Below are positions 14,301 to 63,124 of a DNA stretch of 64,000 nucleotides, in pieces (position 1 is the first letter of the stretch; every line of letters starts with the position of its first letter). The position numbers were made by a program, and so were the translations under genes. This DNA is from Mytilus californianus (Eukaryota). The stretch is from assembly GCF_021869535.1 (NCBI RefSeq), contig NW_026262679.1, forward strand, positions 92,711,982 through 92,775,981, written 5' to 3'. The notes beneath the pieces are model-generated. The model saw only the letters and a program-made list of their open reading frames with translations, made no database searches and was not told where the DNA came from.

Positions 14301-14308
14301 CTACTTAC

Positions 14309-29487: not shown

Positions 29488-29611
29488 AATTATGAAATGT
29501 CGTCAACTGACAGAAACAAACTCCTAATGGGAGACAATAAGTCTATGTTATCAACTAGTTCATCATTGATGTCGAAATGGTCACTGAAGACAGACTTGAC
29601 ATCCCAAACTG
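29488..29611 (+). CDS. TEP1: TEP1 orthologue, first coding exon seen (CDS from ATG 29497)
   Basis: Acceptor tttcag at 29482-29487 means a 5'UTR exon lies upstream. ATG at 29497, with an out-of-frame uATG at 29492 giving an 11-aa uORF. Translation MSSTDRNKLLMGDNKSMLSTSSSLMSKWSLKTDLTSQT. Donor ACTG|GTTGGT leaves phase 1, which joins in frame with the next exon. Confidence 0.5.
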
Positions 29612-30602
29612 GTTGGTTTTAATTTTACAATAAAAGTTTGAATTATGTAATTTTCATGAAGAATTAAAATACTGTAAATATGGAAATGATTAAAATATTT
29701 CCAATTTAAGCAGCATAAATTTGTTCGTAAATATCTGAATATCCTTAGAATGTTATACATGTAGATGAATAAAAAGGTATGTGAAATATAAGTCAATAAT
29801 ACAGAAACCCAACAACACAAAAGCTCAATAAGTCACACACTGTTTTCAACCATAGTCAAGTGTCTATACATTGTTTCTTTAAGCTCTAAATTGAGCACTA
29901 AAATGCCCAGAGTCAAGACAAGCTGTGTCCATGTTTAACCGAGAGTAACCTAGATTGCCAATTGCAATAACACCAGATTTTTTAGCGGACAAAATCATTA
30001 GAATTTGATTAAAGACAACCAATTTCTTTCATGACAATGTTCCTAATTTTATGTACATGTATTATAATTAAGCTAATGTTTTTCTTTTAATCTGAATATG
30101 ATTATATTTGATGATTAAAAATCATGTTACATTGTATTATATATGAAGTTGTAGACATATATTATGACAGAGAACAGGTCTTGTATTCAAGGAACTCTAC
30201 ATGCTTACTGTTTATTCGTAAAAAAAATGTTTTAGTGTTGACACTTAAATTTGTATGTAAGCCTCTCATCCCTTGCATTAAAAAATTCAGAAAATATTTT
30301 TAGCTGACAGAATTTCAGAAGAACAATACTAACAAGATCTTAATAAAAAGAAAGGATATGGGGTATCCATCTATGGCTCAAATTCAGAATATGTACAGCG
30401 AAAAAAACAAAAATCAAAGAACAGCGCTTTTATTGCTGTTTTTCATCTCAAATTGACTGTTACAGCTGAAAGAAAAACAAGATATTTTTGTGTGTTCAGG
30501 TCATGATTGTTTACACAAGGAGTGAATAATTTATGTGAACTTTTCTGTGTGAATGTGACCAACACTACCTTTTCCTAATAAATTAATACACCTTTTTTTC
30601 AG

Positions 30603-31348
30603 GTTTAGGCCTAACGGCAGGATTGGTAAAAATGGAGAAGCCATCTTCTGTGACAACTTCAGGAAGAAGTAGGCTTGACCAAAATTCTTCAAATAATGGT
30701 GGAAAGATTACATCTTCAGCCTTACAAAATACATTACTTGGACCAACAAAGTCGAGTTTTTCATTGTCAGGAACTCCAGGATTGTCATCAAATTTGACTA
30801 GCAGTTTGACCACATCATCCAATTTGTCTAGTAGACTTGGTTTGTCATCAGGTTTAAGTAGCAGGCTTGGACCATCCTCCAAATTAACAAGCAGTCTTCT
30901 GACAAAGTCTGACCAATCAAAACTTAGCTCATTGAGAAGTGATGAAACTAGAACTGACCAAACTTCTTCCGTGTTTAAGGAAAATTTACAATCAAATTTA
31001 CTGAAGTCAAACTCGCCTCTTGTCACGATAAAAATAGAACCAGTCACATCCTTCAGTTCTAGCGCTTTTTCAACTCAAAGTACACTAACAAGGCAATTGA
31101 GCTCAGATAAAAGGGAGACAACCAAAAGAAAGAGTAATGATCGCTCTGCAGTCAAATCAAGAAAGAAGATTATGAACAATGATGGGAAAGTTACTACCAT
31201 AACTAGATATGAGGTCAAACCACCACAGTATAAATTGGAAGTAGACATTAAAGACAAAGGAATTGATATCCCAGACTTTGTATCACCAGCACAGGATCCA
31301 AGTTTGAAACCTATTTCTAAACCATTACATGATGTGAATGGTATAAAG
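30603..31348 (+). CDS. TEP1: TEP1 exon 2, Ser/Thr/Leu-rich low-complexity N-terminal region
   Basis: Acceptor ttttttcag|GT. 248 codons in frame from exon 1. Degenerate SSxLxSSL repeats (..SSNLTSSLTTSSNLSSRLGLSSGLSSRLGPSSKLTSSLL..). Donor AAG|GTATTG, phase 0. The supplied ORF 30623-31492 runs on into the intron. Confidence 0.6.
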
Positions 31349-31761
31349 GTATTGATATCTACACAATATCTGGTGTCAAAATTAGGCATTGTTTTGCATT
31401 TGCCAGAAAGAATGATTGAAATTATCATCCACTGGCCCTTTCTTAAATGTTTAGGGATTCTATTCATGTCAGGTTGGGTTGGTGGATACTGAGTTACACC
31501 CTCTAAAACAGACAATTTTGAAGTTGCAGCTCAATCACTTGAGTATGTATGTTTCAATAAAGTTAATCCCCTTAAAAGTTTTTAAATTCTTTTCAGTTGC
31601 CTGAGAAATGAACTGTTCATTCAGAAAATTGGTTTTGTAAAAAGAAATAGTTATAAATGCATATGGAAAAGAAATATATAAGTAATTCTAATAGTCTGGT
31701 GCTTTTGATGTGATGAAAAAAAGTCATTGCTTAACATGTATTTTAAAATTTATTATTTTAG

Positions 31762-31896
31762 CTTGGTTTCATCAATGCTGTCAGTGGTTCACTTATTTGC
31801 CAACCAGATTTTAGAAATTCAGTAGACAATACTAGAATAACACTATCCAACATGGCAAAGAGTTTGGTTGTTTATGATCCAGAGTTTATATTGAAG
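31762..31896 (+). CDS. TEP1: TEP1 exon 3 (start of TROVE region)
   Basis: tttag|CTT ... AAG|GTAACT. LGFINAVSGSLICQPDFRNSVDNTRITLSNMAKSLVVYDPEFILK aligns to human TEP1 ..LLEPEFILK. Confidence 0.85.
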
Positions 31897-32159
31897 GTAA
31901 CTACATATGTGGTAAACTTTTTATCCCCCACAGAGCCTCAGTGAGGGTATTGCTATAGGGCAATATGATTTATTATACTTCATGTCAAAATGCCAGATTT
32001 TGATTGGTTAATACGAGGGAGACAATTTACTCTATCCCATGGTAAACGCTCAAGTGTGCTCTTTAGTAAATACAGATGATTGTTATGTACACGACGTCAT
32101 AGTTTATTACTTCGAATTTAACATTTAATAGACAGTAATAACAGAATATTCAGTATAAT

Positions 32160-33490
32160 AAATTAAATAACACATATCTGAGAGGGTGATAGAGCAGATT
32201 GTTACCCCTCGAAAAGACATTGTCAACCTTGGCTAAGTCGCCTCAGTTGACAATGCAGTGGTCTCGTTAGCCCAAAATAGAAGGGCGCCGCATCCTGGGT
32301 GCCCTCAGCCGGGCCCTGGGTGCCTTCATCCGCGCCCTTCTGCCCTGACACCTTTTCCCCAAAAACCTTTGTGACGTTTTGGTAAAATTGCCTTTTGTTT
32401 CATCGATTTCTTATCACAAAGTTAAATTACATATATGACACCAGGTGATTGCCCCCAGGTTAATCATGTCATTACAATCAATTACAGTGGATAAGACTTC
32501 AAAGGTGTTAATAACTAGGTAATTTGATTTAGACAATGTACCTTTTTGTCATAAATTTGATGAATGTGTCAGCGAGTGTTTTTAGCTTGGGTCGGCATTT
32601 TCGATCTCCAAGAAGAGTGTATAAATGAAGACTTTCATGACTTTAGAATAGAATTTAAGACATCAAAATACTGCCTTCACAGAAACGCCGTCCATCTCAA
32701 CTTGTGAGCGACAAGCAAACAGTAAACGTGTTAGAAATTAATTTTGGAGTTACTTCCCCTGTTTTAGCTTATTACAAATTTGTGCTCCTAAAATATTATC
32801 TAGTATTAAAAATAGGAATAAATTACCAATTGAATACAAAATTATATAAGAATGTTACCTTAAGGATATTAACTGTCTTTGAACATACGAAAAAAAATAT
32901 ATTGCAATATATTTTTGATAATCATACTTTTAGCAATCCATGTTCTATACATTGTCAATTAAGGAATTTATTAGTTCAATTGTTATGTTGATGTTAAGCT
33001 GCAATCCTACATAAATGGGTAGTGTGAAGTTAAACTATCATAACATCAACTTGATGAAGCTTTACTAAATAATTCCTTAACACAAACAATGATTAAAAGT
33101 TTTGAGGGCCAAACTCTAGCTGAAAATTTTGAAATAAGACAACTCTGTCACATGTATGCTAAACTATGAGATGTTTAGTTTATGTTGTTTTTTTTTTGAA
33201 AAAGGGGGGGGGGGGGGGGGGGGGTGGAGAATAGTAAGTTAATTTGCCTCTATTGGTTTATAGTGATGTGATGTATGAATGTGTATTGACATGTTTTATG
33301 AACATGTTGTATGAATTACATTTTCTAATGCAAATTTTATAGAATAAATAATCAAAACAACAACTTATTCATAAAAAAGTGCCCTGCCCTCCACTGGCAC
33401 CCTGCCCCTTTTGATTTCTAGCTGGAGCACTGCAATGTTTTCTCTGGGTAACAATCTGCTCTATCACCCTCTCAGCTATGTGTTATTTAT
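32160..33490. mobile_element. Non-autonomous TIR DNA transposon of about 1.33 kb in TEP1 intron 3
   Basis: 43-bp terminal inverted repeats: AAATAACACATATCTGAGAGGGTGATAGAGCAGATTGTTACCC at 32160, and GGGTAACAATCTGCTCTATCACCCTCTCAGCTATGTGTTATTTAT at 33446. GC-rich sub-terminal blocks (32270-32350, 33368-33410). A 21-nt poly-G tract at 33204-33224. The internal ORF 32704-32991 is junk. Confidence 0.75.
33204..33224. repeat. Poly-G homopolymer (21 nt)
   Basis: aaaaa followed by G x21 then tggag. Lies inside the TIR element 32160-33490. Confidence 0.9.
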
Positions 33491-34397
33491 ATATTGTCCA
33501 TCTGTCTGTCTATTACACGTTTTTATGATAATTTGTTAAAAAAAAACTGAATTTCAATGATGGTTCATGAGGCTGCAAATATGAATTTCTTGGATGAATG
33601 TTTAGTTGGAATAATTCATCAAATATTATATGAGAAATCTAAGTTGTTGCATTGGAAAAAGTTGGATTTTGAGAAAAGCATCTTGTTTACTTCTGAACAA
33701 AAGTGAAAATGACTGTATTGCAATAAGAGCTATATATATAATAATTGCTGTTGAAGACAAAATTTCTCATACAACATTGAAACTCATATGACTTTATAGT
33801 TTAATTTATTTCCATTTACTTGTTATTTTTTGCAAAGGTACTCATCCTACTTTCACCTTAAACTTGTTTTTTTCTCTCACTTATTTAAGAGTTAATTCAT
33901 AATTATTAGAATGACAATCTATTATAAATTCAAAATTGCATGGACTGAATTCATTGTAATGTGATTTAACTAAGTTTGTGAAAGAATAATTTACTTTTCT
34001 TGTCTGTGACGAATGTCCAAGAAAGCTAGATAAAGCAAGAGCAGTGACAGTGCTAGCTGATGTATAAAATCTCTTATTTAAGTTGGTATGACATATCTTG
34101 TATATATACAAATGTCTTACTGTCTTAAGTTTCCATCAGGCATATGTTCATTGTCCTTGAACTATTTTTTTGCTTCAGTAACTGGTTTTAAATAAGCTAT
34201 AGTTTTTCTTAGAACTCGGTCAGATTGACATGTACATCTTACAATCATTTTATACACAGAAAAAGTTACCTATTACATATGGTATCGGAGAAACTGTCCT
34301 TTTTAAGAAAACTAAATGTCGACCATTGAACCATGAAGATTTCAGAATACATCTTTTTTAGCCAACAACATTCCTTTATTTGATTTTTTTTTTGTAG

Positions 34398-34559
34398 GTT
34401 GCACTGTACACCAGAAAACAACTTAACATAAGAACAACAGCAAACTTTCTGTTAGCCATGGCGGCTAATATTGATTTGTGCCGACCATTCTTAAAGAAAT
34501 ACTACTGTGCCTCTATCAGTTTACCATCAGACTGGATAGAAGTGGCTGAAATATATCAG
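34398..34559 (+). CDS. TEP1: TEP1 exon 4 (TROVE)
   Basis: ttttgtag|GTT ... CAG|GTTAGT. VALYTRKQLNIRTTANFLLAMAANIDLCRPFLKKYYCASISLPSDWIEVAEIYQ aligns to human ASLYARQQLNVRNVANNILAIAAFLPACRPHLRRYFCAIVQLPSDWIQVAELYQ. Confidence 0.9.
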
Positions 34560-36132
34560 GTTAGTACTGGTATGGTTACCTAAGGGAGATAATTTTAGGC
34601 TACAGGTACATGTAGTACCTTGAATATATCAGAGTAGTGATTCCTTATTTAGTCAAGGGACTCAATTATTGTCATGATTATGTAAGTAAATATTTTATGA
34701 TGCTTAATTTTGTTATTCTATCAGTTGTATTTTATCAAAGAAGCAAATAATTTCATTCCAATAAGTACTACACATTTAGAAATTACTGTGATGTTGGTAT
34801 AATATTGGATGTTCTACTGGAACAGGTTTCAAGAACAGAATTAATTGATAATTATTGTAAGTTGTTAAAGATTGACCAGAAAATGTTCATGCATTTAATT
34901 CGTGCGGTTGATCCAAGGTTCACGAGTGGGGGGTTATTGCCATCTTTGGGAAAAAATGAAGGAATCTATGACAAAAAATGACATTTTTCTGATAGGCATA
35001 CCCTTTTATGTCCCACCTGAATCTGCCACTGAATTATTTATTTTCAGTGTTAGAAATAAGTTTGTTTAAACAAAAGAAATCCATAAAAGTATTCCACTGA
35101 AATAAATAAATTTATTGAATTGAAGATGTAGTCTGCTCTACTACATACATAAATCAACTGTGCCATTTTGTAAAAAAATCTAAAACCCAATGTTAAACCT
35201 CTAGGTTTGCTCATTGTTACCATAATGCTTCAAATGACCTCAGGATCATTAGAGAAAAGACATGCATGAAAGTTTATTTTATGGAATTGAACTGATGTCT
35301 GAATATTCTGTACATCGTAACCATATAGAATTTACAAATCTTTAGTTTAATCTGTATTTTGTAAATAGTATTAGATATAGTTGTGATCTTACATTGATAG
35401 TCAAACACTGATATTTTTTATACGACCGCAAAAATTAAAAATTTTTTGGTCGTATATTGGTATGACGTTGGCGTCGTCGTCGTCGTCGTCTGGCGTCGTC
35501 CGAAGACACATTGGTTTTCGCACTCTAACTTTAGTTTAAGTGAATGGATCTCCATGAAATTTCACCATAAGGTTCAATACCACGAAAGGAAGGTTGGGAT
35601 TGATTTTGGGGGTTATGGTACCAACAGTTAAGGAATTAGGGGCCAAAAAGGGGCCAAAAATAAGCATTTTTGTAACTTTCAGACAATAACTTGTGTGTAA
35701 GTGTATGGATCTCTCTGACATTGTACCACAAGGTTCCATATCACAAAGGGAAGGCTGTAATTGATTTTGGGGGTAATTGCCCGAAACGTTTAGGAATTGG
35801 GGGCCAAAAAGGGGCCAAAAATAAGCATTTTTCTAGTTTCCAGACAATAACTTGTGTTCAAGTGTATGGATCTCTCTGAAATTGTACTGCAAGGTACCAT
35901 ACCACAAAGGGAAGGCTGGGATAGAGTTTGGGGGTGATGAATCATAAGGGGGTTCAAAAAATTTGGGGGGGGGGGGGGGGATTTTTTTTTTTTTTTTTTC
36001 TTTTTTTCCTTTTTTTTTCTTTTAAAATTTTCCATTTTAAGTTGGTTATTTCTGATTTATATTTAAAAGCAAATAATAATGATATGGTAGGAGATACACA
36101 CCAAACAGGATGTGTAAATTATTATATAATAA

Positions 36133-36360
36133 GTATTGTGCAATAGCAAGAAATTTTCAATTGCACAGTATTGCACAATAGCAAGAAATCTTCAATTGCA
36201 CAGTATTGCGCAATAGCAAGAAATCTTCAATTGCACAGTATTGCACAATAGCAAGAAATATCCAATAGCACAATATTGCGCAATAGCAAGAAATTGTCAA
36301 TTGTACAGTATTGCGCAATAGCAAGAAATATTCAATTGCACAGTATTGTGCAAAAGAAGA
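36133..36360 (+). repeat. 35-bp minisatellite, about 6.5 copies, each unit containing the palindrome TATTGCGCAATA/TATTGCACAATA
   Basis: The unit cacagtattgcacaatagcaagaaatcttcaattg is repeated head-to-tail. Its core ATTGCGCAAT equals the canonical C/EBP palindrome. The same array occurs at 45670-45890. Confidence 0.8.
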
Positions 36361-36399
36361 TACTTTGTATAAATTGCTTATTTCTTGACCAATTTCAAT

Positions 36400-37900
36400 G
36401 GGGTTTTATTCTTGAATTCTTGGGGTTCTTTAATATGCTGAATCTAACCTTGTATTAAGTTTTTGGATTTTGGGCCCCGTTTTTAAATTGGTCCACATTG
36501 AGGTCCAAAGGGTCCAAAATTTAACTTTGTTTGATTTCATCAAAAATTGAATTCTTGGGGTTCTTTGATATGCTGAATCTAAACATGTGTTTAGATTTTT
36601 GATTATGGGCCCAGTTTTCAAGTTGGTCCAAGTTGGGTCCAAAATTAAACTTTGTTTGATTTCAACAAAAATTGAATATATGGGGTTCTTTGATATGCTG
36701 AATCTAAACATGTATTTAGATTTTAGATTTTTGGCCCAGTTTTCAAGTTGGTCCAAATTGGGGTCCAAAATTAAACTTTGTTTGATTTCAACAAAAAATG
36801 AATATATGGGGTTCTTTGATATGCTGAATCTTACCATGTATTTAGATTTTTTATTTGTGGGCCCGCTATCAAATTGGTTCATATTGAGGTCAAAAGGGTC
36901 CAAAATTAAACTTTGTTTGATTTCATCAAAAATTGAATTATTGGGGTTCTTTGATATGCCAAATCTAACCGTGTATTTAGATTTTTAATTTTGGGTCCTG
37001 TTTTTTAAATTGGTCTACATTAAGGTCCAAAGGGTCCAAAATTAAACTTAGTTTGATTTTAACAAAAATTGAATTTTTGGGGTTCTTTGATATGCTAGAT
37101 CTAAACATGTGTTAAGATTTTTGATTATGGGACCAGTTTTCAAGTTGGTCCAAGTTGGGGTCCAAAATTAAACTTTGTTTGATTTTAACAAAAATTGAAT
37201 TTTTGGGGTTCTTTGATATGCTAGATCTAAACATGTGTTAAGATTTTTGATTATGGGACCAGTTTTCAAGTTGGTCCAAGTTGGGGTCCAAAATTAAACT
37301 TTGTTTGATTTCAACAAAAATTGAATATAACGGGTTCTTTGATATGCTAAATCTAAACATGTATTTAGATTTTAGATTTTTGGCCCAGTTTTCAAGTTGG
37401 TCCAAATTGGGGTCCAAAATTAAACTTTGTTTGATTTCAACAAAAATTGAATATATGGGGTTCTTTGATATGCTGAATCTTACCATGTATTTAGATTTTT
37501 TATTTGTGGGCCCGCTATCAAATTGGTTCATATTGAGGTCAAAAGGGTCCAAAATTAAACTTTGTTTGATTTCATCAAAAATTGAATTATTGGGGTTCTT
37601 TGATATGCCAAATCTAACCGTGTTTTTAGATTTTTAATTTTGGGTCCCGCTTTTTAAATTTGTCTACATTAAGGTCCAAAGGGTCCAAAATTAAACTTAG
37701 TTTGATTTTAACAAAAATTGAATTCTTGGGGTACTTTGATATGCTGAATCTAAACATGTGTTTAGATTTTTGATTATGGGCCCAGTTTTCAAGTTTGTCC
37801 AAGTTGGGGTCCAAAATTAAACTTTGTTTGATTTCAACAAAAATTGAATATATGGGGTTCTTTGATATGCTGAATCTAACCATGTATTTTGATTTTGGAC
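36400..37900 (+). repeat. Satellite: unit of about 125-143 bp, about 12 copies
   Basis: The unit ttgaat(tc/at)ttggggttctttgatatgctgaatctaaacatgt(g/a)tttagatttttgattatgggcccagttttcaagttggtccaa(g/a)ttggggtccaaaattaaactttgtttgatttcaacaaaaa has long and short variants. ORFs on both strands (36430-36903, 36587-36988, 37238-37949) are repeat artefacts. Confidence 0.85.
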
Positions 37901-49023: not shown

Positions 49024-49222
49024 AAAACAAGATTGTACAAGAGGCAGAGATTGCAGCCCAGTATGCAGCATTGGGAATTCCTCAACCAAGTGAGCGTGCC
49101 AGAGGTCGTGGTCGCGGTCGTGGTAGGGGGAGAGGTAGAGGACGAGGAGGAGGGGCAGAAGGAGAAGTACAATGGTGGATAGAGAAGAGAAACAAAAAGA
49201 AAGCTGAAGCAGGAAAAGCTAA
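49024..49222 (+). CDS. TEP1: TEP1 exon 11 with (RG)n repeat
   Basis: ttaacag|AA ... GCTAA|GTATGT. QNKIVQEAEIAAQYAALGIPQPSERARGRGRGRGRGRGRGRGGGAEGEVQWWIEKRNKKKAEAGKAK. Phase is compatible with exons 10 and 12. Homology to human is weak here, so a missed small exon in 47802-49023 cannot be excluded. Confidence 0.6.
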
Positions 49223-49528
49223 GTATGTTAAATTTAATCCTGTCACATGTTTGCATGCCTAAGCCATGTTTAAAAAATCTCATCTTGGGTATGTTTAAGC
49301 TATAAGGTTTTTGTTTGTTATGAATTTGGTCTTTGTGTCTGATATTTGATTATCTTTGTTGAATTTATAAACTACTTGTGCATACCCTATAGTCATCTAT
49401 AATTAAACCCATATATCATCATTTAGTATCTTTTTATGGTCTCATTAGGGGTTTCTCACCTCAAAATTTTGTCTAGAAATTTTTTTGTAATGCCTTGTGT
49501 AATTCACTGTCAAAACATTATATTTTAG

Positions 49529-49709
49529 AGAGACACCTTATGATCCATCACTTATACAGAGATACAGGAAAGCTTTAGATACAGCTGTTAAGATAGCAAC
49601 AGTATACAATGTCCAACCAATCAAAGGAAAGACAATCGTTCTGTGTGATGTTGGAGAGAATATGGACGTTAATTGTACAGCAGCTAGGGGTCTTGGAAAA
49701 CCAAGAAAG
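49529..49709 (+). CDS. TEP1: TEP1 exon 12
   Basis: attttag|A ... AAG|GTTAGA. KETPYDPSLIQRYRKALDTAVKIATVYNVQPIKGKTIVLCDVGENMDVNCTAARGLGKPRK aligns to human MLNRYRQALETAVNLSVKHSLPLLPGRTVLVYLTDANADRLCPKSN. Confidence 0.85.
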
Positions 49710-50312: not shown

Positions 50313-50459
50313 ATGAGAGAAGTGGCTGTGTTGATGGGTTTGATGTGTAAATACTCATGTGAGAACTGTGAATTTGTCGTATTCGACGAGACTCGTTACG
50401 ACCTGATCACACCAAAACCTGGAACAATTCTGAATAACATGGAAGATACACTTACTGCT
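50313..50459 (+). CDS. TEP1: TEP1 exon 13
   Basis: tattttag|ATG ... GCT|GTAAGA. MREVAVLMGLMCKYSCENCEFVVFDETRYDLITPKPGTILNNMEDTLTA aligns to human LNYALLLIGMMITRAEQVDVVLCGGDTLKTAVLKAEEGILKTAIKLQA. Confidence 0.8.
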
Positions 50460-50595
50460 GTAAGAATTTAAACTCTTATGTGTCTGTATTCAACATAAAG
50501 AATATTATTCATAACTGAGCTCTTTATTTTGAAGTGTTGTTTTATTATTTCCTTTGAAAAGGAAAACACTGCTGTGTATTGATTTCTTATCTATT

Positions 50596-51413: not shown

Positions 51414-51752
51414 TTAAAATAATATGTAAGAATGATCATGAGGCTGTTGTTGGTGGCAATCCTATCTTCTAAACCACTTTATGGGTGCTGTGTTTGTTGG
51501 AATTAATGGTTAAGCTTATATTAGAAATTGTTTACCAAACAGCATTTCTTGGTTTGAAAGTACATTTGTAGTTTCTGGTTGGGAATATTTGAACATATTT
51601 GTCCATTTGCATTTATATGTGGTATACAGAAAAGTTTTGACTTAAAGTTGAAAATTGAATTTGCCATTTTCAAACAAATTTACTTACAGTTGGATGATTT
51701 CATTTGCAGTTTTTTGTGCTTAATATATTATTTTAACAAATTTATATTTTAG

Positions 51753-51839
51753 TTGGATAAAAAATTGAAGCCCGGCAAGAAATTTGAATACAAAATTCCA
51801 GATTGTATATTGAATGATGCTTTGGTGGATAGACAACAG
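51753..51839 (+). CDS. TEP1: TEP1 exon 14
   Basis: tatattttag|TTG ... CAG|GTACGG. LDKKLKPGKKFEYKIPDCILNDALVDRQQ. Strong splice sites and phase 0 on both sides. Homology to human is weak. Confidence 0.6.
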
Positions 51840-52221
51840 GTACGGGCTTCAGAATAAATCAATTAACATTAAGTGTAATTTAAGAAAGTGTGATTAATTG
51901 TCATTGAGACGGCTTCCTATAAATGATCACTTCCAAGAATCAAGGTTAGCTTCTAATATTTTCATGTCATTAAAATGGAAATGTTCACAGCAATAGCATA
52001 TATATTTTAAACAAAATTCTGTGGATTTGGTTTGCGAAATCACAAATGTCTTTTTTCACTTCTTTTTCATATATTTTAAACATATATGTATAATCTTTTC
52101 AAAAATTTTAAATAAATTGTATTTCTGGAAGTATGAATTTTTTTATATATTTCAGATGTTTTTAAAGAGTTTTTATATATACAAAATTTTCATAAAAATT
52201 TGAATTACCTGCTAATTACAG

Positions 52222-52361
52222 ATTGATAACTTGATAATACTGAGTGGTGGAGTTGACAGTGTACAACAGGAGTTTGTCTCCTTTTTCCTGAAGAAGTTCA
52301 GACAACTAGTGAACCCTAATCTGTTATACGCCAATATTTCATTCAGTGGAAAAGGATGTGG
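52222..52361 (+). CDS. TEP1: TEP1 exon 15
   Basis: attacag|ATT ... TGTGG|GTATGT. IDNLIILSGGVDSVQQEFVSFFLKKFRQLVNPNLLYANISFSGKGCG aligns to human VDRVILLGQSMDDGM..LSTDLNPNDVTLSGCTD. Confidence 0.8.
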
Positions 52362-52783
52362 GTATGTATAAAATGTTTATTTTAGCTTACATAAGTCTGA
52401 AAATAACAAAGATAGGACTTTATATTGTAAGCAGGCAGAATCTTAGATCTTTTGTATACAAAGTATGCTGTTCAAGATTGACATGGTCTGACAATATTAG
52501 TTCAATAAAATATTTATATATGCTGTTGAGTTGTGGGAAAAAACAAAAATTTTCATAACATAAAGTATTTACTTAAAAGTTTAATTAAAAAAAGATAACT
52601 GGTTTCTTGTATACCAGGTCTGTTCAAGGTTGATGTGATTTGTAAATTTGATAGTTTAACTAGATATTGATGCATGCTGTTTATTTGGGGGTATGAATTG
52701 AAAATCTGCACAAAATAAAGCATTTCAAAAATTATGAGAGTAAATGATTTTCATATTAAAAGGTTATCTTGTTATATTTTTAG

Positions 52784-52855
52784 ATTTTCAGAGAGTATCA
52801 AACCAGAGAATGATAATGACATCTATATCACAGGATTTAGTGATGCTATACTGAG
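52784..52855 (+). CDS. TEP1: TEP1 exon 16
   Basis: atatttttag|A ... CTGAG|GTAATA. (G)FSESIKPENDNDIYITGFSDAILR aligns to human TLSGCTDAILKF. The alternative acceptor at 52790 gives an in-frame stop. Confidence 0.75.
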
Positions 52856-52892
52856 GTAATACTTATCTGCCAAAACATATACAGTGCCAATT

Positions 52893-53325
52893 TTTATGCC
52901 TCCGCCGTAGCGGAGGGAGCATTAAGTTTTACCCTTGACCGTCTGTACGTCCGTACGTCCTGAAATTTGTTTCTGTTCTCTAACTTTAGTTTGCCTCAAA
53001 CAAATGTTATGAAACTTATACACAATGCTTACTACAATAAAACACAGATCAAGTTTGAATTTTAGTGGTGTCACTTTTATCGTTCTAGAGTTATGCCCCT
53101 TTACAAATGGAAAAATTGCTGAATTTTTTGTTTATGTTTTCTAACTTAAGTTTGCCTCAACCAAATGTCATGAAACTTATACACAATGCTTATTACAACA
53201 AAACTCAGATGAAGTACGAATTTGGGTAGCGTCACTTTTACCTTTCTTGAGTTATTTCCCTTTATAACGTTATATGTTCAAGTGGGGCATCATCAGTGTC
53301 CCATGGACACATTCCCCATTTATTG
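52893..53325. repeat. Short dispersed element with palindromic head CCTCCGCCGTAGCGGAGG and an internal 2-copy 160-bp tandem duplication
   Basis: Head at 52899-52916 is a perfect 7-bp-stem palindrome. Units of about 160 bp lie at 52981-53110 and 53142-53270. The tail GGGGCATCATCAGTGTCCCATGGACACATTC matches 42745-42780. Confidence 0.55.
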
Positions 53326-53630
53326 CAAATGGAATTGATTTAAAATATTGCCCTTCAATTATTTGCTAGTGTGAGACAAGAATTTTCCAGAAAATTCACA
53401 GGATTAGATTAAATGCTAATTATTCATGTTATGCTATGGTTTATTCCCAATAAATTCCTTTTTAGTCCTGTAAACTCATTAAACAGGGATATAACACATC
53501 CTTTATTTGTCTTGAATATGCATGTAATATTGTTTAACCACAGGATGTTGAGCAAGCAAAAATCTTCCAAAGTCATCAATTGATGTTTTATTTGAGAAAA
53601 TTTAAAATTTAAATATCTGATTTTGAACAG

Positions 53631-53789
53631 ATTCATTGCTGAGAGAGGTGATGGAGGACAACTTCTACATGTTGATAAGATAGATGAATTCTTCAAACTG
53701 AAACCTATGCCAATACTACAGGATGTCTCTAGACCAGCGAGGTCTGTTCCTGTAGAAAGACCACTGCCAATACCATGCAACACACCATG
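53631..53789 (+). CDS. TEP1: TEP1 exon 17
   Basis: tgaacag|A ... CATG|GTAAGT. FIAERGDGGQLLHVDKIDEFFKLKPMPILQDVSRPARSVPVERPLPIPCNTP aligns to human FIAEHGASHLLEHVGQMDKIFKIPPPPGK. The 119-aa minus-strand ORF 53424-53783 is antisense to this exon. Confidence 0.85.
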
Positions 53790-54905
53790 GTAAGTTATAA
53801 CTTGTTACAATAGAAATTAAATAACAGTGACTGTGGATTCATAAATAGTCATGGGGTGCCAATTTTAGAGGATTTAGTGATAAACTACGAATTAAAATGT
53901 TCAATGAAGTATACATTTTCTACAGGCTTGTATTCTGACTTTGCAAACCATGTAATCAAATATCCAAGAAAAATACAATTGTTCCTCAATCCACTTAAAA
54001 TTGGTATGCATGAAAGTAAACTAATTCACAGTAACCAATTTTCTTGTAAAAGGATAATTCTGTTGTAATGTTGTGAAGATCTTTTTTTATAAAGAACAGA
54101 TGTTCAAATCCAACTGCTCATGTGGAACTTAAGACTTTTCCAGAATTGATTAAATGGGGGGATTAGGAAGGCACTTTTATTCAAATTTGAAGTGTGGTGG
54201 TTATTTTAGATAGAAAGTCTTAACAATTATATGAAATAATCAATTAAAATGTGATGCATCGCAGGGTTAAATATAAAGTACCTTTCGAACCCCCAATACA
54301 TTTATTTCTGAAATAGCCCTTAGGTAAAGATAAGAATATAAGCTGAAGTTATCTGAAGCAAACTGAATAAACTAAGATTATTGGTTTTTGTGATTAACAA
54401 AAGTTGAAATGGCTCCACGCTAAATTCAAGTTTTGATTTGTGTTAAACCCTAATCAGTGCCTTAATGATTGGTATATACTGAAGACCACGGCAGTTGTTT
54501 CAATATTTTACAGAAAAAATTATGGGGCCAAGGTTTTTTTCTTGACAAAAGCTTTTTAAAAGAGTAGCTTCTAAAATATAATGCGGAATGTATTCTTTTC
54601 AAAATAATTTTTCTTCTCTTTTTTTTTTTTTTTTTTTTTTGAATGCAAAAACATTTTTGTATACTTAATTGTTGATATGTATGGCATTTGTCATGATTTC
54701 TTTCAAATACTCAATGATGAAAGACTTTTGGATGTGCTTTTACTGGTTGTGTTTTTCTCTCTCACCTAATGGAATGAAATTATATTTTTATAAAAAAATC
54801 ACCTGCCTGAAATGGAGGAAAACAACACAATGTAAAAATTTAATGTGATGCAGCCTAACAAATTGAATCATGAATGTGTCAAATACTGTTTTCTTTTTTT
54901 AATAG

Positions 54906-55082
54906 CTGGAGAACCTTCAGAGTTTTTATATCATCAACATTCCGAGACATGCATGGAGAGAGAGATGTTTTAACAAGATATGTATTCCCAGAGTTACGTG
55001 CTCTTGGAAAGAAACATTTTATAAATGTATATGAAGTTGATTTGAGGTGGGGAGTGACAGAAGAAGAGACAAAACATCATAA
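54906..55082 (+). CDS. TEP1: TEP1 exon 18 (conserved [14 protein letters not shown] block upstream of NACHT)
   Basis: tttaatag|C ... CATAA|[64 protein letters not shown] aligns to human [58 protein letters not shown]. Confidence 0.95.
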
Positions 55083-56026
55083 GTAGGAATTCAATTGTTT
55101 TCACGGGATGATATAGTTTACAAAATTTATCTTTTTTTTTTTTACCTGTATGAAGTAAAGCCCCTGTTATGAAAAGTCTTAATGAAAATGTTACGTACAT
55201 GATCAAAATTCTTACTTTTTTTACTCTTTAACTTTTAACTTTTAAATATTTAGTTTAAGAAATATAAAAAGGTTGATAAATTGGAGCTTGTAAACATTTG
55301 TAGTAATTAGTTAGGATAGCAAATAAGTTTGAAATGAAATTTTATAACAGCTATTATACATGTTCTGTTAAGAAAAATTTAGATTATGTTCTAGAGGTAA
55401 AACTCACTTTAATTGTTAAGTTTCTTTTCTCTATAAATTTTTTCCATATTATGAAAAATGAAGGTATTTTTTACCTTTTTCTTATGGAAATCAATGTATA
55501 GATATAATTTGTTTATTAAAGTGTCACATTTTGATTGCAATAAAAAGAATTCATACACAATATACATACATAATAAAACAGCCAATATCCAGCCAAAAAT
55601 CTGACTTACGAGACACTATATACCAAATAAAGACAGCGTAAAAGTAAAAAAAATATATATATGTCTTTTTCACTAAAGAATAATCCTAAGTATATTGTTA
55701 AATAAGCAGACATAAGGCTCTGATGATGGACCCATACTGACTTGCAAACAAACAGAGCAGAGTAATGTTGTCAAAAAGAAGTTTATGGGAAAACGTTTTT
55801 TTCTTGCAAGTTCTTGTTTATTTAATTTATAATTACTTAAATTACACAAAAAGCAGCACACTTTTTACCTTTTTAAGATTTTTTGTTGTTGCAATTAATT
55901 GAAGTTCACATTTTGTGTAATTGAGTTTCTTTTAAAAGGAAGTGGTTTTGTTTTGAATTTTTATGCTAATTGGAATATTATGCAATTAAGTAGGATATTA
56001 TAAACCCTACAGTATTTCTTTTGTAG

Positions 56027-56269
56027 GACATTAGAGTTATGCTTATCAGAAGTTTCCAAATGCCAGTTTTTTATTGGCATCCTAGGGGAACGATATGGGT
56101 ATATGCCTGATAAATACACTGTGCCAGATACACCTGAATATGACTGGGTGAAACATTACCCTCAAGGGGCCTCAGTGACAGAATTAGAAATGCATTTAGG
56201 AGTTTTGATGAATGCTGCACAGAAACAAGACAAAGCTGTGATGATGATCAGAAACAATAATTTTATTAA
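56027..56269 (+). CDS. TEP1: TEP1 exon 19
   Basis: ttttgtag|G ... ATTAA|GTAAGT. KTLELCLSEVSKCQFFIGILGERYGYMPDKYTVPDTPEYDWVKHYPQGASVTELEMHLGVLMNAAQKQDKAVMMIRNNNFI aligns to human [64 protein letters not shown]. Confidence 0.9.
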
Positions 56270-57400
56270 GTAAGTACAAGTAAATGCATAGGTATTTACT
56301 TAGAAATGTTCTGTCTAAACTGAACCCTGCATAAACTAAAAACCTGTATTATTTGAATTTTTGTATCAGAAAACATTTTGAATATTCTTTAATACTTATA
56401 CCCAGGTTAACGAACACCTGCCTAATCCCAATAACTGTTCAGTCTCAACAGGTTCAGGTAGGTCGGTTTTCACTGTTCATTTCAATAACTTTGTGAAGAA
56501 TTTATCATTTCCTCGAATATTTATCTTCTGTGTTATTATGGAATGTACTTAACCAAATTTTAGACTATGTTTTAACAATATTCATGCATGTTAGGGTTAT
56601 TTATTCCATATGGAGCTCAACTCTATTTGTATCTTACAATAGGCTTTTCCTGATTGGCTGTCAATGACATGCTGAACAATTCATTTTTGATTGTGACATA
56701 AAATATTTATGAGATTTGTTATTTCTTATAAATGCATGTCTAAAAAATGTGCATATCAATGACAAAAATAATGTTAAGGATGTTAGCTACTCTGTTTCAA
56801 AATAAAAAGCTTTTAAAAGACTTATACATTGATAGTATATATATATATATAATGGAACTAAAAAAAACAGAAAAAGTTCAAGGGGCGTGTCCTTTTTGTT
56901 GAGATATAAGCCATTGAAAATTTGACAGGAAATGATTCTCTCTAGATTCTTCCTACAATTAACATCAGCATCTTTTTTCTTTCAAAAATTATGAAAAAAT
57001 ACCAAGGATTTTAGAAAATTAAAATAAAAATGGCTTTTTAAACTATATGTAATAAAGTTATCAAAAGAAAAGTAGCGGTTCATGGGCACAGCATGGATAA
57101 AACCAGAGGATTCTGAATATCTGACAAAAAGTCAAAACCAAGACTAGGGAACATCCTTAAGCTCCAATGATTGTTTTGAAATTTGTAATTGATACTTGTA
57201 AATTTTCTAGTATGACCATTATTATTTTGATGCTGTGGTGTTAGATACAGATAACTTAAACTGCAACGTTTTAATACTGTGATCTCGTCTAAATAATTTA
57301 CACCCATGTTGGATACATTATAAAAATGCCATTTTAATAGAACTACCTTTTTATGGCAATATTAATAAACCAGCAATATAAAATTAACTGTTTGTTCCAG

Positions 57401-57526
57401 AGATGTACCAAAAGAATTCCTGTCAGATTTTGTAGCAGAAAATCCAGAAGCTGAAAGCAAGATGACTGCACTGAAGAGTAGGGTTAGGAGATCTCCTCTG
57501 GAAATTATTGAAGGGTAAATATTGCT
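57401..57526 (+). CDS. TEP1: TEP1 exon 20
   Basis: tgttccag|A ... GAAGG|GTAAAT. KDVPKEFLSDFVAENPEAESKMTALKSRVRRSPLEIIE aligns to human [32 protein letters not shown]. Confidence 0.85.
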
Positions 57527-58996
57527 TGTGAATGGTATGCAACATATACAATGAAAAATGAGGGGGGGAGGGGGGAAACACTATTATAAAAAAAAGAATG
57601 ACAAGAAATATATATTTAGAACAATAAGAACTTCAAAATATTTTACCAGAAGTGTATTTGAGGTGTATTAAATGTTAGAAAAACTATTGAGGAATATAGA
57701 GGTTTTTAGTTAACTTTTTTTTATAATGCATATCCTAGTTAAAAGCTATAGGGGTAAAAATAATGTTGAGGAAGAGTTGCATATGTGAGAATTGAACATT
57801 CATAACAATTTCCATTTATCATGAAGTACATGTAAAACTATATTTCTATAACAATGGATATTCTGTTCCTTACTCTTGCAGCATACCCTATCTCAAAAAA
57901 CCTAGTTGAATCCTGCCACATGTTTATATGCCTGTCCTAAAAAAATCTCAATGAGTCCAGGCTTCTAATTTGGTTTTCCAGATGCACATTTTGTTTACAT
58001 TAGACTCATCAGTGGTACTCAAATCAAAACAGTGGGAATACTAAATCAAACACAAAGTTGGAAGAGCATTGAAAACCAAAAATTCTAAACAGTTGTGCCA
58101 AATATACATTTAGCTAGGGCCACCCATGCATAGGATTAGAATAAAATTAGCATTTTAAACAATTCAATATATTAAAACTAAAAAAAGACAACAATATCCT
58201 GGATTACTGCAAGGAAATGCTTTATTCTGGTCTACATGTTTCGCCACTTACAGTGGTGTCTTCAGGACAATTTAATGATAGGAAACAAATGCTGAAGTAC
58301 ATAAAATGAGGTTCATTTGGGATTGCAAAAAAGGTTAACAAGAAGTTACCTCACAATTATTGGTTGGACGACTTTAAAATGAAAGTGAAAGTAAAAGTTG
58401 ATAATGAATTGTCAGTATCTTTTCCAAAATGGACAACACCACACTGAACATTCTGTACCAATTCAATATATTATTCAAAGAATTAGCAGAAAATGACTGT
58501 ATCAATGATATTACATGTCAACACATGAGTTCTGACTACTGGGCAGGTGATATCCTTGGGGATGAAATGTCTACCAGCAGTGACATTGACCCAGTGGTTG
58601 TAAAAACTCATCAAGTATTCCAGGCTTATTATTTGATATACCAGACTCCTGTTTTATCTACATACGACTCATCAGAGACACTCCAATCAAAACAGTTTGA
58701 AGGCCATATTAAATAAAAAGTTGATGAACATTGAAAACCAAAATTTCCATAAAGTTGTGCTAAATATAGCTTAGGTCATTTATTCCTGGGAGTAGAAAAA
58801 GCTGATTGTTTCGAATAATTCAACAGTCAGGTTCCTTGTTAGTTGTTGTCTTTTGCGACATATCATTAATGTTAATTAGATTAAAATGTAATCAGGCACC
58901 CTTTTAGTGATTACTTAATTACAGGGCAAAGCAAAATCATATTTTTTGTACCTCCTTTATTGTTAGTACATGAATAAATATGATCAAATTTTGTAG

Positions 58997-59117
58997 GTAT
59001 GACTGTAGATGGGGAGGATCTGTTGATGGGAAGCCCATTGTTTCAGGACTAGAGAAGTTTGCAATGCCAATAATTAACTCTGTATGGAATTCTGTCAGGA
59101 AGCAATGCCCAGATGAG
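58997..59117 (+). CDS. TEP1: TEP1 exon 21
   Basis: ttttgtag|G ... GAG|GTAAGA. GYDCRWGGSVDGKPIVSGLEKFAMPIINSVWNSVRKQCPDE aligns to human [36 protein letters not shown]. Confidence 0.85.
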
Positions 59118-59576
59118 GTAAGAAAGTTCTTGCAATCTTTGCTATGACAACACAGTCAGCTTTAAATTAATCAAGGCCTGTAAACACTAAATAGAATACA
59201 AAGGACTGAGCAACAAGAACCCCCACAAAAACCAGGGCTAATCTCTGGTGATCTGGAAAGGTTAGCAGATTCTGCTCCACATGTGATACCACATGAGATA
59301 CCCATCATGTAACTCTAATGAAATATGTCTAGAAGAGGTATAAACTTTAACAAGAATTTAGAAGGAAAAAACAAAACTAGACAATGGAAAAAAACACTGA
59401 AATGTATTTAAAAATGATCATGGTAAATCTGTCAGACATGGTACATTGTACATGTACATTTATTTATAGGACATGGAAGTGATTTTACATATAAAAAACC
59501 TTTGCACAACTTAATTTTATAACAAGAACAATAAAACACAAACATTTAGTAAATCAAACTGCCAACATTTATTATA

Positions 59577-59762
59577 GGATGCCATGTTGGATGAAACAAC
59601 CCATGCTACAAAACAACATGAGGCAATGGTAGAGAACCATAGAGCTAGATTTGTAGGTAGGAAAAACCTGATCAAGGAATGTCTCAAAAACATGAAAGAA
59701 ATGACCTCTGGTGGTGTGTTATCACTTACAGGAAAAGCAGGCACAGGAAAATCTGCTGTTTT
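59577..59762 (+). CDS. TEP1: TEP1 exon 22 (NACHT Walker A)
   Basis: ttattatag|GAT ... TTG|GTAAGA. ..HRARFVGRKNLIKECLKNMKEMTSGGVLSLTGKAGTGKSAVL aligns to human RLMLPHGRLSLVTGQSGQGKTAFL. Contains the P-loop motif GKAGTGKS. Confidence 0.9.
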
Positions 59763-60007
59763 GGTAAGAAATCTTTTTTCAAAGTTAATACTTAGCTAAT
59801 TATGAATATATAGTGAACATTATTATGTCTTATCATGCATTATTTTTGCGGTTGTTATTTTGACAATTTCATTACATAAACTTTTTGTTCCTTCTTGAAA
59901 TGTCAAAAGATCCCCCTTGTTTATCTACATATTGAACTTTTCATAGCTCATCCAGATGAACAAATTTCAAATATCAGCTTGCTATTATTATGTCTGTTAC
60001 TTTGAAG

Positions 60008-60183
60008 GCTTCACTGGTGACATCTTACAAAGACTCAACCCAGTGTGATAGTCCAGCCAACATCTTGGTCCATATATCTGGAGCAGCCCCAGGGTCTACA
60101 AACATCCTGGCCACTCTAAGGAGACTGTGTTATGAAATAAGAAGACAGTTTGGACTGAGAACTGATATCCCTGAAGATTATAA
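60008..60183 (+). CDS. TEP1: TEP1 exon 23 (NACHT)
   Basis: tttgaag|GCT ... TATAA|GTAAGA. ASLVTSYKDSTQCDSPANILVHISGAAPGSTNILATLRRLCYEIRRQFGLRTDIPEDY aligns to human ASLVSALQAPDGAKVAQLVFFHFSGARPDQGLALTLLRRLCTYLRGQL. Confidence 0.9.
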
Positions 60184-60800
60184 GTAAGATTTTATTTTGC
60201 AATACAGCTTCAATTAACCTTATCTTGTAAAAGGGAGTATTACAGTGTTTTCCTTAGAAGCAGGTTGTACGTTAGATAGCTTTCTAGTTCACCATATTGG
60301 CCATCTTATTTTTTTTAATCAATTATAAAGTAATAAATATAAAAATTAAATGCATGCCCTCCTTTGCCTTATACTGTCAGTTTGTTTGTCATAAATTCTT
60401 GAAAAACACTGTATTGGTAATACTTATGAAATAACAGTCCAATGTACTCTGGAATTGACATATATTAAAGGAACTGTTTACTTCAAATTAAAAAGTCAAT
60501 AGAACTATTGAATAATATAACTCTTTTAAAAAGAATATTATAGAAAATATAAAGTCAGAAATGTTTGCAATGTTTTTATTATGGAAAAAGTGGTAAGCGG
60601 ATAGGTTTTCCAAAAGTAAAATTTTGATAGCATTATTTAAAGGCAGCATTTTCTCAAAACCTAATAATTTATCTCTTTTTATTGGTTCATTGTTCAACAG
60701 TCGGAATAAAAATGCAACTAGTTTTGGTAAAATTTAACAAAGTTCTGATAAGTTAAATGCAATTAAATTGAATGTAATTAGAGCTATACTATCTTTTTAG

Positions 60801-60948
60801 AAACATAACGCAGAAGTTTGGTGAGATGTTGAGTGAAGCTGGATCTCTATCTGGTTCCCCAGTGGTCATATTCATGGATGGTTTAGACTTGATGGAGAAC
60901 ACACTTCTGCCAAGCACAATGGATTGGCTGCCTAATCCTGTACCAAAG
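60801..60948 (+). CDS. TEP1: TEP1 exon 24 (NACHT Walker B)
   Basis: ctttttag|A ... AAG|GTAGGG. KNITQKFGEMLSEAGSLSGSPVVIFMDGLDLMENTLLPSTMDWLPNPVPK aligns to human ..HPGQTQVLIIDGADRLVDQNGQLISDWIPKKLPR. Confidence 0.85.
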
Positions 60949-61781
60949 GTAGGGGATCCACAGTGTAGACTGGTTCCTCAGTCCCTTTTCATTTGTTGTA
61001 CCAGGTTTATAAGGGGAGGTAAATCAGATAACCATTCAGGTTCCCCATAAAACTTACATATGTGACATCAGATATTTGAAATGTAAACATATAATGCTGA
61101 TTTTGGTGCATAGAAAACATGTGTCTTCAATACTCTTCATCAGGTGTGCTATAGACCAAAAGTTTAGTGCCATTTAATATTTCAGGTTTTGTGAGCTGAA
61201 AAGACAGTTAAATCAATATTGCATTAGTTATATGATTGCTTTAAATTGCCTTTGTTTGTTGTCATTTTGTCATTTTTGTAGTTTTAGCTACCATATTTTG
61301 ATATGTTAATATTACCCATAATATACATTCAAGAATATATAGGGATCTTTGGTTCATTTGTTCATCTCATTTTTGAATACCAGATTATAATTCATACTAT
61401 AGCTCATCAAATCTTTTGAAAATTACAAAATCTCATTGACCATATTGTACTTTTTAGGTCGTATATGGTATATTTGAGTTTTAATGGGTCGAGTTTTATG
61501 TCCCTTTATCATCTGGAAGTTTGAATTTTAAAGTTTCGGGATAATAATAAATGTTCTTCTTTTTAAAGATAAACAGTCTAAACATCATAGAGTATGGCTT
61601 ATTTTAGATATTGTAGGATTTGGTCATCTAAGGTTTAACATACTCTTTAATATTTTTTGGCAACAGTGATTAATGTTCTTGTAATAGCTGACTCAAACAG
61701 AGTTCTGGGTGATCAGTTATCATATAGCTTATGTTGTCAAGAATAGACCATATCACTATTTATTTATTCTTTTTGTGGCAG

Positions 61782-62006
61782 GAAAATAATGATAAGATTT
61801 TTGAAGTTTCAAAATCTTCTTTAATTCAGAATGTAATATTTGTGATAACTGCATTGGAGGATGGGAAGTTCCACAGTTCTTTGAAGAAACTTGGAGCTGT
61901 CAATTTAAGTGTTGGTCCATTAGACATGTGGGACAAAGCTGATGTCGTCAGGAACAACTTAGCAGTACACAGGAAGGCTTTAGATGAATCCCCATTTAAC
62001 AACCAG
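61782..62006 (+). CDS. TEP1: TEP1 exon 25
   Basis: tgtggcag|GAA ... CAG|GTAAAA. ..GPLDMWDKADVVRNNLAVHRKALDESPFNNQ aligns to human GPLEASARARLVREELALYGKRLEESPFNNQ. Confidence 0.9.
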
Positions 62007-62173
62007 GTAAAACTTTTTATTCAGGAAATACACTTTAATTGTAATGAGGGTTTGTAAAAAAAACAATTTCAATTAATTGATACAAATTTGAGTTTTCCTT
62101 TTTAATTTTACATTTACTACATCATAATTTAGTTTGAAAATTATATTACATATTTCTTTTAACTTTTCTTCAG

Positions 62174-62266
62174 ATGAAGTTATTGCTCTCAAAGAGGGAA
62201 GGAGCAAATCCTCTTTTCTTGAAGCTTGCATGTGAAGAACTCAGAGTATTTGGAGTGTTTGAAAGG
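62174..62266 (+). CDS. TEP1: TEP1 exon 26
   Basis: tcttcag|ATG ... AGG|GTATGT. MKLLLSKREGANPLFLKLACEELRVFGVFER aligns to human MRLLLVKRESGRPLYLRLVTDHLRLFTLYEQ. Confidence 0.9.
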
Positions 62267-62991
62267 GTATGTTAACAAATAACTTCTTTTAATTTAGAAT
62301 TGTTGCATACATTTATTATTGCATTTACTGAACAATGGGCACATATGGGATTAATTATTGCAATTTCAGGAAATGCTGTGTACTAATAATTCTATCAAAT
62401 TTAGAATGCAAGTTTATTTTTGCAAAACTTGATGAAAACATCACAAAAATTCCTGAATTTACAGTGCTTTTTTAGCCAGTTTGAATACAGTACAGATTGT
62501 GAATTAGTAGTGGGTTGGCAGATATGGGTTGGCAAGTTGTCATCAAGTGAGAGTTTGTGGCAAAAAATGTATCTTTTTTGTGTATTTGTGCCCTACAGTT
62601 TTTGAATCTGAGCTTTCAAACTTTCTAATGTAAAAAAAGGGATATGGTGTATTACAAATTCATGATTCATGACACAAAATGCTTGCATAATTTGACAAAG
62701 AAAAAGGAACAGAGCTTTTAATGAGGCTCCTCATCTCAAAGTCACAGTGAGCCCTCTATTTGGATCAAAAATTTGCACCTCACTGCAAGACTTCCCCTAA
62801 CTCCGCTTTTATGGAATTATTTGGAATGAGTGCATAACAATTTTGATCAATATACAGACTGAAAGACTAAATGTTTATTAGAACACATAAGAGAGTTTAT
62901 CTCAAGAATAAATGTGTTGTAACAATAATGTTGATTATCAAATCAAACTGGAAAGCAGAATAAGGTAACAATTAGAGGAAATCTTTTACAG

Positions 62992-63124
62992 ATTACCAAT
63001 AAACTGAAATCCCTGCCACATACCACTCCAGCATTATTACAAGAAGTACTCTCCAGACTAGAATCAGACTTAGGACTAGAGCTAGTATCTACAGCCATCT
63101 CATTGTTAGTCTGTTCAAGAAATG
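62992..63124 (+). CDS. TEP1: TEP1 exon 27; gene continues beyond the window
   Basis: ttttacag|ATT ... AATG|GTAAGT. ITNKLKSLPHTTPALLQEVLSRLESDLGLELVSTAISLLVCSRN aligns to human VSERLRTLPATVPLLLQHILSTLEKEHGPDVLPQALTALEV. The exon ends in phase 1 with more than 1000 aa of the human protein still to come. Confidence 0.8.

Follow-up and report, generated by a model that had tools for sequence, protein, structure and literature searches.

A stretch of 64,000 nt from Mytilus californianus (contig NW_026262679.1, positions 92,711,982 to 92,775,981 of the forward strand), hereafter the window, very probably carries on its plus strand, at 29.5-63.1 kb, the TEP1 orthologue of an AT-rich invertebrate, an intact protein-coding gene of which the window contains the 5′ two-thirds. 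There is little doubt that the gene is an ordinary, intact orthologue of TEP1 (telomerase protein component 1, vault protein p240), a known kind of gene. The encoded protein starts with a Ser/Thr/Leu-rich N-terminus, followed by a linker-interrupted TROVE domain, a vWA-like region (DUF5920), DUF4062, a P-loop STAND ATPase and the first post-ATPase helices. TROVE and vWA are positioned ahead of DUF4062 and the ATPase, an architecture specific to TEP1. The same layout has been described in TEP1 orthologues of animals from sponges to mammals and in that of Dictyostelium.

In the spliced protein, Pfam TROVE (PF05731) scored 359.3 bits (E 4.8e-107) in two stretches parted by a linker in exon 6. DUF5920 (PF19334) on the vWA side reached 39 bits (cut-off 27, profile positions 88-186 of 203), DUF4062 (PF13271) 63.4 bits (cut-off 24.7). 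The best solved-structure match was a human 'Telomerase protein component 1' fragment (11gz_A, a 220-residue chain) with 217 bits (E 3e-63). These scores, together with a P-loop STAND ATPase in TEP1 order, support the TEP1 orthology proposed in an earlier note on this DNA. The note had described a TROVE region fused to a NACHT ATPase. TROVE and a STAND ATPase are present, while Pfam NACHT stays below its gathering score (22.8 against 26.7 bits), and the DUF4062 and vWA regions had been overlooked. The practical gain is a checked exon map of a long, repeat-interrupted gene with three splice-site corrections.

Gene model

The model was rebuilt from tblastn of 120 database fragments, a dynamic programme on splice sites, phase and codon usage, and manual curation. 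A core of 24 exons was stable in the dynamic programme. Curation introduced four changes: the start exon and the exon 51753-51839 were added, the donor of exon 3 was shifted and the terminal exon was replaced. The resulting 27 exons lead from an ATG at 29497 to a donor after 63124, all on the plus strand, with AG at all acceptors, GT at all donors and no in-frame stop. The model comprises 1550 codons with the upstream acceptors of exons 23 and 25, and 1524 codons with the acceptors 60008 and 61830. Its 26 introns measure 167-4254 nt. Stops make up 6.5% of the codons in each of the three frames of the genomic span; therefore, a stop-free chain of 1524 codons (P ~1e-45) is not attributable to chance. 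The window is AT-rich throughout (~32% G+C) and eukaryotic in its gene structure, with short open frames between AG/GT-bounded gaps and numerous interspersed and tandem repeats. The GT donor (phase 1) at the end of exon 27 indicates that the gene extends beyond the window, as the earlier note had stated; the remaining 876 nt (63124 to 64000) gave no confident further exon.

Searches with the 120 fragments against the window yielded 312 high-scoring segment pairs (HSPs), all on the plus strand; these form 21 collinear clusters that follow the protein from 31762 to 62296. As controls, the reversed window and three shuffled versions of it yielded no HSP. When the translations of five exons were joined and searched against a protein database, 267 matches resulted. 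Among the matches listed, all named ones are 'telomerase protein component 1(-like)', the precomputed domains are TROVE, DUF5920, DUF4062 and models of the NACHT clan, and the database fragments measure at most 512 aa each. With a low exon penalty, the dynamic programme produced 44 exons, including extra mini-exons in intron repeats (e.g. 34826-34925, 35683-35893 and 38990-39165), which disappeared at higher penalties. None of the 27 exons of the model overlaps a repeat.

The independent rebuild agrees with the earlier note on 27 exons, on the end points 29497 and 63124 and on a frame without stop. The length of about 1546 codons given there lies within the range of the rebuild, and intron sizes of about 0.2-4.2 kb were reproduced. 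An exon-by-exon comparison was limited to the five exons that it had listed of its 27. Four of these are exactly AG/GT-flanked (34398-34559, 54906-55082, 60801-60948 and 61782-62006), although homologues favour a shorter acceptor at 61830 for the last one. The fifth, 59577-59762, was placed 1 nt too low and is corrected to 59578-59763. All five quoted peptides occur on the plus strand at the places given: LPSDWIEVAEIYQ at 34521-34559, FISSTFRDMHGERD at 54925-54966, GKAGTGKS at 59731-59754, VVIFMDGLD at 60862-60888 and ESPFNNQ at 61986-62006.

N-terminal, TROVE and vWA-like regions

Exon 1 (29497..29611) begins with the proposed start codon at 29497. The ATG, an open frame and a GT donor are present, and an acceptor AG lies before 29488. 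Exon 2 (30609..31348) is a 740-nt open frame for the low-complexity N-terminal region, which is rich in Ser, Thr and Leu as in Patella; from QNTLL on, its translation can be aligned to the N-terminal part of fragment P0026 from Patella vulgata. TROVE starts in exon 3 (31762..31896), which was matched by tblastn. A donor at 31911 was dropped in favour of 31896 because four homologues read EFILK and (V/L)ALYTR on the two sides of this junction. Exon 4 (34398..34559) contains LPSDWIEVAEIYQ and shows 75% identity to the database fragment P0019. The TROVE exons 5 (38215..38311), 7 (41461..41594) and 8 (42081..42238) were supported by tblastn and homologue alignments, exons 9 (43347..43456, HKKLPFMAMLRNLRNL) and 10 (47711..47801, SKQFPFRFFSAYEVL) by tblastn. 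A single HSP suggested a read-through of exon 9 to 43555, which is excluded by stop codons past 43456.

Two low-complexity inserts are located within the TROVE region. Exon 6 (40395..40672) codes for a Lys-rich, RGG-rich and Ser/Asp-rich linker and is needed for the reading frame. The exon is supported by the presence of the same linker in the limpet fragment P0026, which also hints at a mollusc as the probable host; non-mollusc homologues have K-rich and acidic stretches, but no RGG. Exon 11 (49024..49222) is a linker with an (RG)n run and preserves the frame; its terminal DPSLIQRY matches LIRRY/LLDRY of the homologues. It is conceivable, if unlikely, that the RGG/RG and Lys/acidic linkers were added in molluscs or lophotrochozoans and provide TEP1 with a further surface for RNA binding or condensate formation, thereby altering the small RNAs loaded into vaults. 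They may equally be neutral spacer sequence.

Exon 12 (49529..49709) comprises the end of TROVE and the start of the vWA-like region, which continues in exon 13 (50313..50459); both were supported by tblastn and homologue alignments. Exon 14 (51753..51839, 29 codons) was added by hand since three homologues carried 24-31 unmatched residues at this point; its IPDCILNDALVDRQQ aligns with VPIEFLTDMLKNRVQ. Exon 15 (52222..52361) belongs to the DUF5920/vWA-like region according to tblastn, Pfam and homologue alignments. Tblastn and homologue alignments also support exon 16 (52784..52855), within DUF5920, and exon 17 (53631..53789), which covers the DUF5920 end and a linker.

The region is collinear with fragments from amphioxus, acorn worm, fish and mammals, in the order TROVE end, vWA-like region, DUF4062. 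In amphioxus, fish and mammals, all three parts are covered by single proteins; hence, they belong to one protein in other animals. A metal ion-dependent adhesion site (MIDAS) motif is absent from the vWA-like region, which reads DVGEN instead. This absence is not a peculiarity of the gene because the TEP1 homologues are devoid of the motif, too.

DUF4062/TeTIR domain

Three preprints of 2026 describe DUF4062 as a TIR-like NADase, named TeTIR, NIR or, in bacteria, the Swarozyc family. Human TEP1 cleaves NAD+ and NADP+ into ADP-ribose (phosphate) and nicotinamide, also inside reconstituted vaults, and depends on E1008 (2026 preprints). Activity further requires F902, R914, R942, C959 and R976, and S905 lines the pocket (2026 preprints). 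The TeTIR domains of TEP1 from zebrafish, sponge and Dictyostelium are active as well (2026 preprints).

The domain is encoded by four exons. It starts in exon 18 (54906..55082) with FISSTFRDMHGERD, the strongest block of the earlier note, which had not recognised it as the start of a DUF4062/TIR-like NADase domain. Exon 19 (56027..56269) forms the core, followed by exon 20 (57401..57514) and by exon 21 (58997..59117) with the end of the domain, the latter also supported by tblastn. The human chain 11gz_A aligns end to end over exons 18-21 with one single-residue gap, corresponding to residues 1003-1215 of the 1524-codon model (979-1191 of a 1535-residue draft). This near-gapless alignment, which crosses the exon 20 junction without a gap, validates the three junctions of exons 18-21.

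The equivalents of human F902, S905, R908 and R914 are located at 54925-54963, those of R942-W943-G944 (the RWG loop) at 55045-55053. C959 corresponds to 56040-56042, R976 to 56091-56093 and the catalytic Glu (human E1008) to 56187-56189. All of these are conserved; only R954, a less critical residue, is exchanged for Lys. Hence, in the predicted protein, all residues reported necessary for human TEP1 NADase activity are conserved. An invertebrate TEP1 that has kept them is in line with an ancient and conserved role of the vault protein in NAD+ cleavage. The TeTIR domain is a possible further test case for TeTIR enzymology.

ATPase and adjacent helices

The ATPase directly follows DUF4062. It starts in exon 22 (59578..59763) with the Walker A motif GKAGTGKS and continues over exon 23 (60008..60183) into exon 24 (60801..60948) with the Walker B motif VVIFMDGLD. 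Exon 25 (61830..62006) is also assigned to the ATPase. A helical domain (NPLFLKLACEELRVFG) is encoded by exon 26 (62174..62266), supported by tblastn and a homologue alignment. Exon 27 (62992..63124) codes for a winged-helix-like segment (LPHTTPALLQEVLSRLESDLG...). The candidate exons 62480-62546 and 63032-63124 were dropped for this single exon, which restores the conserved segment '...VFER-ITNKLKSLPHTTPALL...'.

Two exons have alternative in-frame acceptors. The pair 59978/60008 of exon 23 is 30 nt apart, with CAG at 59978 and AAG at 60008. The upstream site adds 10 codons, and the 10 residues are absent from homologues. With 60008, the Pfam scores rise from 13.4 to 22.8 bits for NACHT and from 31.6 to 36.2 bits for AAA_16. 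The pair 61782/61830 of exon 25 is 48 nt apart; the upstream site, chosen in the earlier note, adds 16 codons. These 16 residues are absent from 11 of 11 homologues, both acceptors score well, and the Pfam scores favour neither. The upstream acceptors equal or exceed the downstream sites in splice consensus, whereas homologues favour the downstream site in both pairs. The pairs could represent alternative splicing or mere decoys.

With acceptor 60008, AAA_16 (36.2 bits), AAA_22 (29.9 bits) and NPHP3_N (27.5 bits) all score above the cut-off. An AlphaFold model of the ATPase shows an AAA+/STAND fold, with a pLDDT (predicted local distance difference test) of 81.6. A region profile with 11 homologues, compared with solved chains, retrieved the NACHT of NLRC4 best (E 1e-7 to 6e-6), followed by Cdc6 (1e-5) and APAF-1 (1e-3); ORC also ranked behind NLRC4. 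The NACHT definition of Koonin and Aravind from 2000 reportedly comprises a Walker A motif GxxGxGKS/T and a Walker B motif in which a tiny residue follows the Asp and a second acidic residue comes two positions further on. GKAGTGKS has this form, and in VVIFMDGLD the D is followed by G, L and D.

Proposed function

Vault RNA binding and residence in vault particles are known for mammalian TEP1. By analogy with orthologues, the TROVE/vWA module would bind a small non-coding (vault) RNA and direct the protein to the lumen of the vault. The TeTIR domain would hydrolyse NAD+ and NADP+ to ADP-ribose (phosphate) and nicotinamide. Oligomerisation and activation may be controlled by the ATPase and by the WD40 repeats expected beyond the window, as in other STAND proteins. 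No RNA family reached the Rfam gathering score in the whole window; therefore, no vault RNA gene is located nearby.

Alternative explanations

The reading as a single gene relies on the in-frame chain and on collinearity with single homologous proteins, and the assignment as a one-to-one orthologue stays a putative one. Several observations weigh against it. The model is drawn from genomic DNA and protein fragments, and the WD40 repeats are expected downstream of 64000, outside the window. The vertebrate TEP1_N repeat model gave no match at E up to 10 in the N-terminal 1002 residues. Vertebrate-type N-terminal TEP1_N repeats are not universal among TEP1 orthologues. Exon 1 is the weakest of the model, with a weak donor (CTG/gttggt) and no homologue support; an alternative, fallback start is the Met at 30632 in exon 2. 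An out-of-frame ATG at 29492-29494, 5 nt upstream of the proposed start, opens a frame of 12 codons. Concerning the ATPase, Pfam NACHT (PF05729) remains below its gathering score with either acceptor of exon 23, at best with E 9e-5 for an alignment that spans positions 3-162 of the 167 in the profile. With the ATPase model as query, Foldseek ranked Cdc6/Orc1, Apaf-1 and Lon together at a template modelling (TM) score of ~0.5 and did not separate NACHT from other AAA+/STAND folds. The label 'NACHT-type STAND ATPase' is a reasonable one that falls just short by Pfam's own criterion.

It is barely credible that the in-frame chain is an artefact of model building across two adjacent genes on the same strand, a TROVE/vWA gene (Ro60- or TEP1-N-like) and a separate TeTIR-NACHT gene (NWD-like). 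The genomic origin of the model speaks for such a split, as does the literature, according to which animals commonly have TeTIR-NACHT proteins that lack an N-terminal extension. In the database, other invertebrates are represented by separate fragments with either TROVE alone or DUF4062 alone, yet these short entries reflect the limit of 512 aa among the matches listed, and single proteins of amphioxus, fish and mammals are collinear with exons 11-19. Moreover, exons 17 and 18 are joined in phase over a 1.1-kb intron by strong splice sites and without a stop, and no signal of a start or terminal exon occurs between them.

It is also very unlikely that the gene is a TEP1-like paralogue specific to one lineage, or a copy that was inactivated recently, instead of a functional orthologue. 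STAND/NLR-like genes are often expanded in invertebrate genomes, the start exon is devoid of homologue support, and orthology was judged from fragments and not from a whole proteome. Against this stand ~1524 codons without stop or frameshift, catalytic and nucleotide-binding residues that are all intact, and high domain scores. The full order TROVE-vWA-TeTIR-ATPase has been reported for TEP1 orthologues only. The in-phase chain, the intact residues and the collinear single proteins of other animals make both explanations unlikely; an intact TEP1 orthologue is the preferred reading.

Repeats and neighbouring features

Repeat families recurring in the window cover 63-75% of introns 4, 5 and 9 (2.1-4.3 kb) and 64% of intron 13, but only 4% of the 2.5-kb intron 3. 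The earlier note had most large introns filled by transposons. This holds for repeats in three of the four introns >2 kb and fails for intron 3, and no transposon open reading frame (ORF) of at least 110 aa was found in the intron repeats. The repeats are composite interspersed elements with internal tandem arrays of ~162-, 35- and 126-135-bp units, and copies are 85-92% identical. The composite repeat is located at 35414-38109, 38427-39739 and 44480-47398, with inverted copies at 6231-7209, 8986-9606 and 17026-18091. Between the copies of introns 4 and 9, identity is 91% across 1.47 kb; the copy in intron 5 shares 92% identity with an inverted one that lies in the region of the neighbouring gene MCMBP. 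Since no copy has a long ORF, the composite repeat is probably a non-autonomous mobile element with satellite-like arrays.

This second gene, coding for the MCM-binding protein (MCMBP), is located on the minus strand at 5987-14575, head-to-head with TEP1 and ~15 kb away. Its exons are 14575-14300 (part), 13490-13389, 11388-11190 and ~6130-5987, and Pfam MCM_bind scored 181 bits (profile positions 13-202 of 577). The gene extends further in the direction of the window start, and the first coding exon is not among the exons given. One MCMBP intron contains a tandem repeat of two 500-bp units (11740-12741). Other tandem repeats are a 121-bp unit repeated 4.1 times with G-rich and C-rich runs (21943-22439) and the 16-bp unit GACGACGACGCCGGAC repeated 3.4 times (9579-9632).

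Near-identical direct duplicates occupy 25676-28234, ~1.3 kb upstream of TEP1 coding exon 1. The segment 25676-26061 is 99.2% identical to 26582-26967, and 26062-26582 is 99.8% identical to 27714-28234. Possible sources are a very recent duplication, the termini of an element and an artefact of the assembly.

Comparison with known systems

Human and mouse TEP1 have the same order of TROVE, vWA-like region, DUF4062/TeTIR and NACHT-type ATPase; the residues critical for the activity of human TEP1 are all conserved in the window gene, and Walker A and B are present. Differences are the low-complexity N-terminus without a TEP1_N match, the RGG/RG and Lys/acidic linkers in TROVE (exons 6 and 11) and the exchange of R954 for Lys. 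Closest among the matches listed are invertebrate 'telomerase protein component 1-like' predictions from Patella vulgata (LOC130012329), Branchiostoma floridae and Saccoglossus kowalevskii, with 50-85% identity per exon. Compared as fragments of at most 512 aa, none is near-identical to the window gene.

Ro60/TROVE2 and bacterial TROVE proteins (Rsr) share the RNA-binding module of TROVE and vWA. Their sequence similarity is weak (E 0.003 for solved bacterial TROVE chains), and they are devoid of TeTIR, ATPase and WD40. Ro60/TROVE2 proteins consist of TROVE and vWA only, whereas TeTIR and ATPase exons follow in frame in the window gene.

DUF4062 directly before a STAND ATPase is shared with NWD1, NWD2, NPHP3, TTC41 and the bacterial DUF4062 defence proteins (Swarozyc, Avs/NIR); bacterial DUF4062 proteins, e.g. 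P0021 and P0039, are among the matches listed. The domains of human NWD1/2 and NPHP3 show little or no NADase activity, unlike TEP1. All these proteins are devoid of the TROVE/vWA extension before the TeTIR-NACHT module, which distinguishes TEP1 orthologues from other TeTIR-NACHT proteins. In proteins of the NWD1/NWD2/NPHP3 type, TeTIR is located at or near the N-terminus, while in the window gene it is preceded by ~1000 residues of TROVE/vWA.

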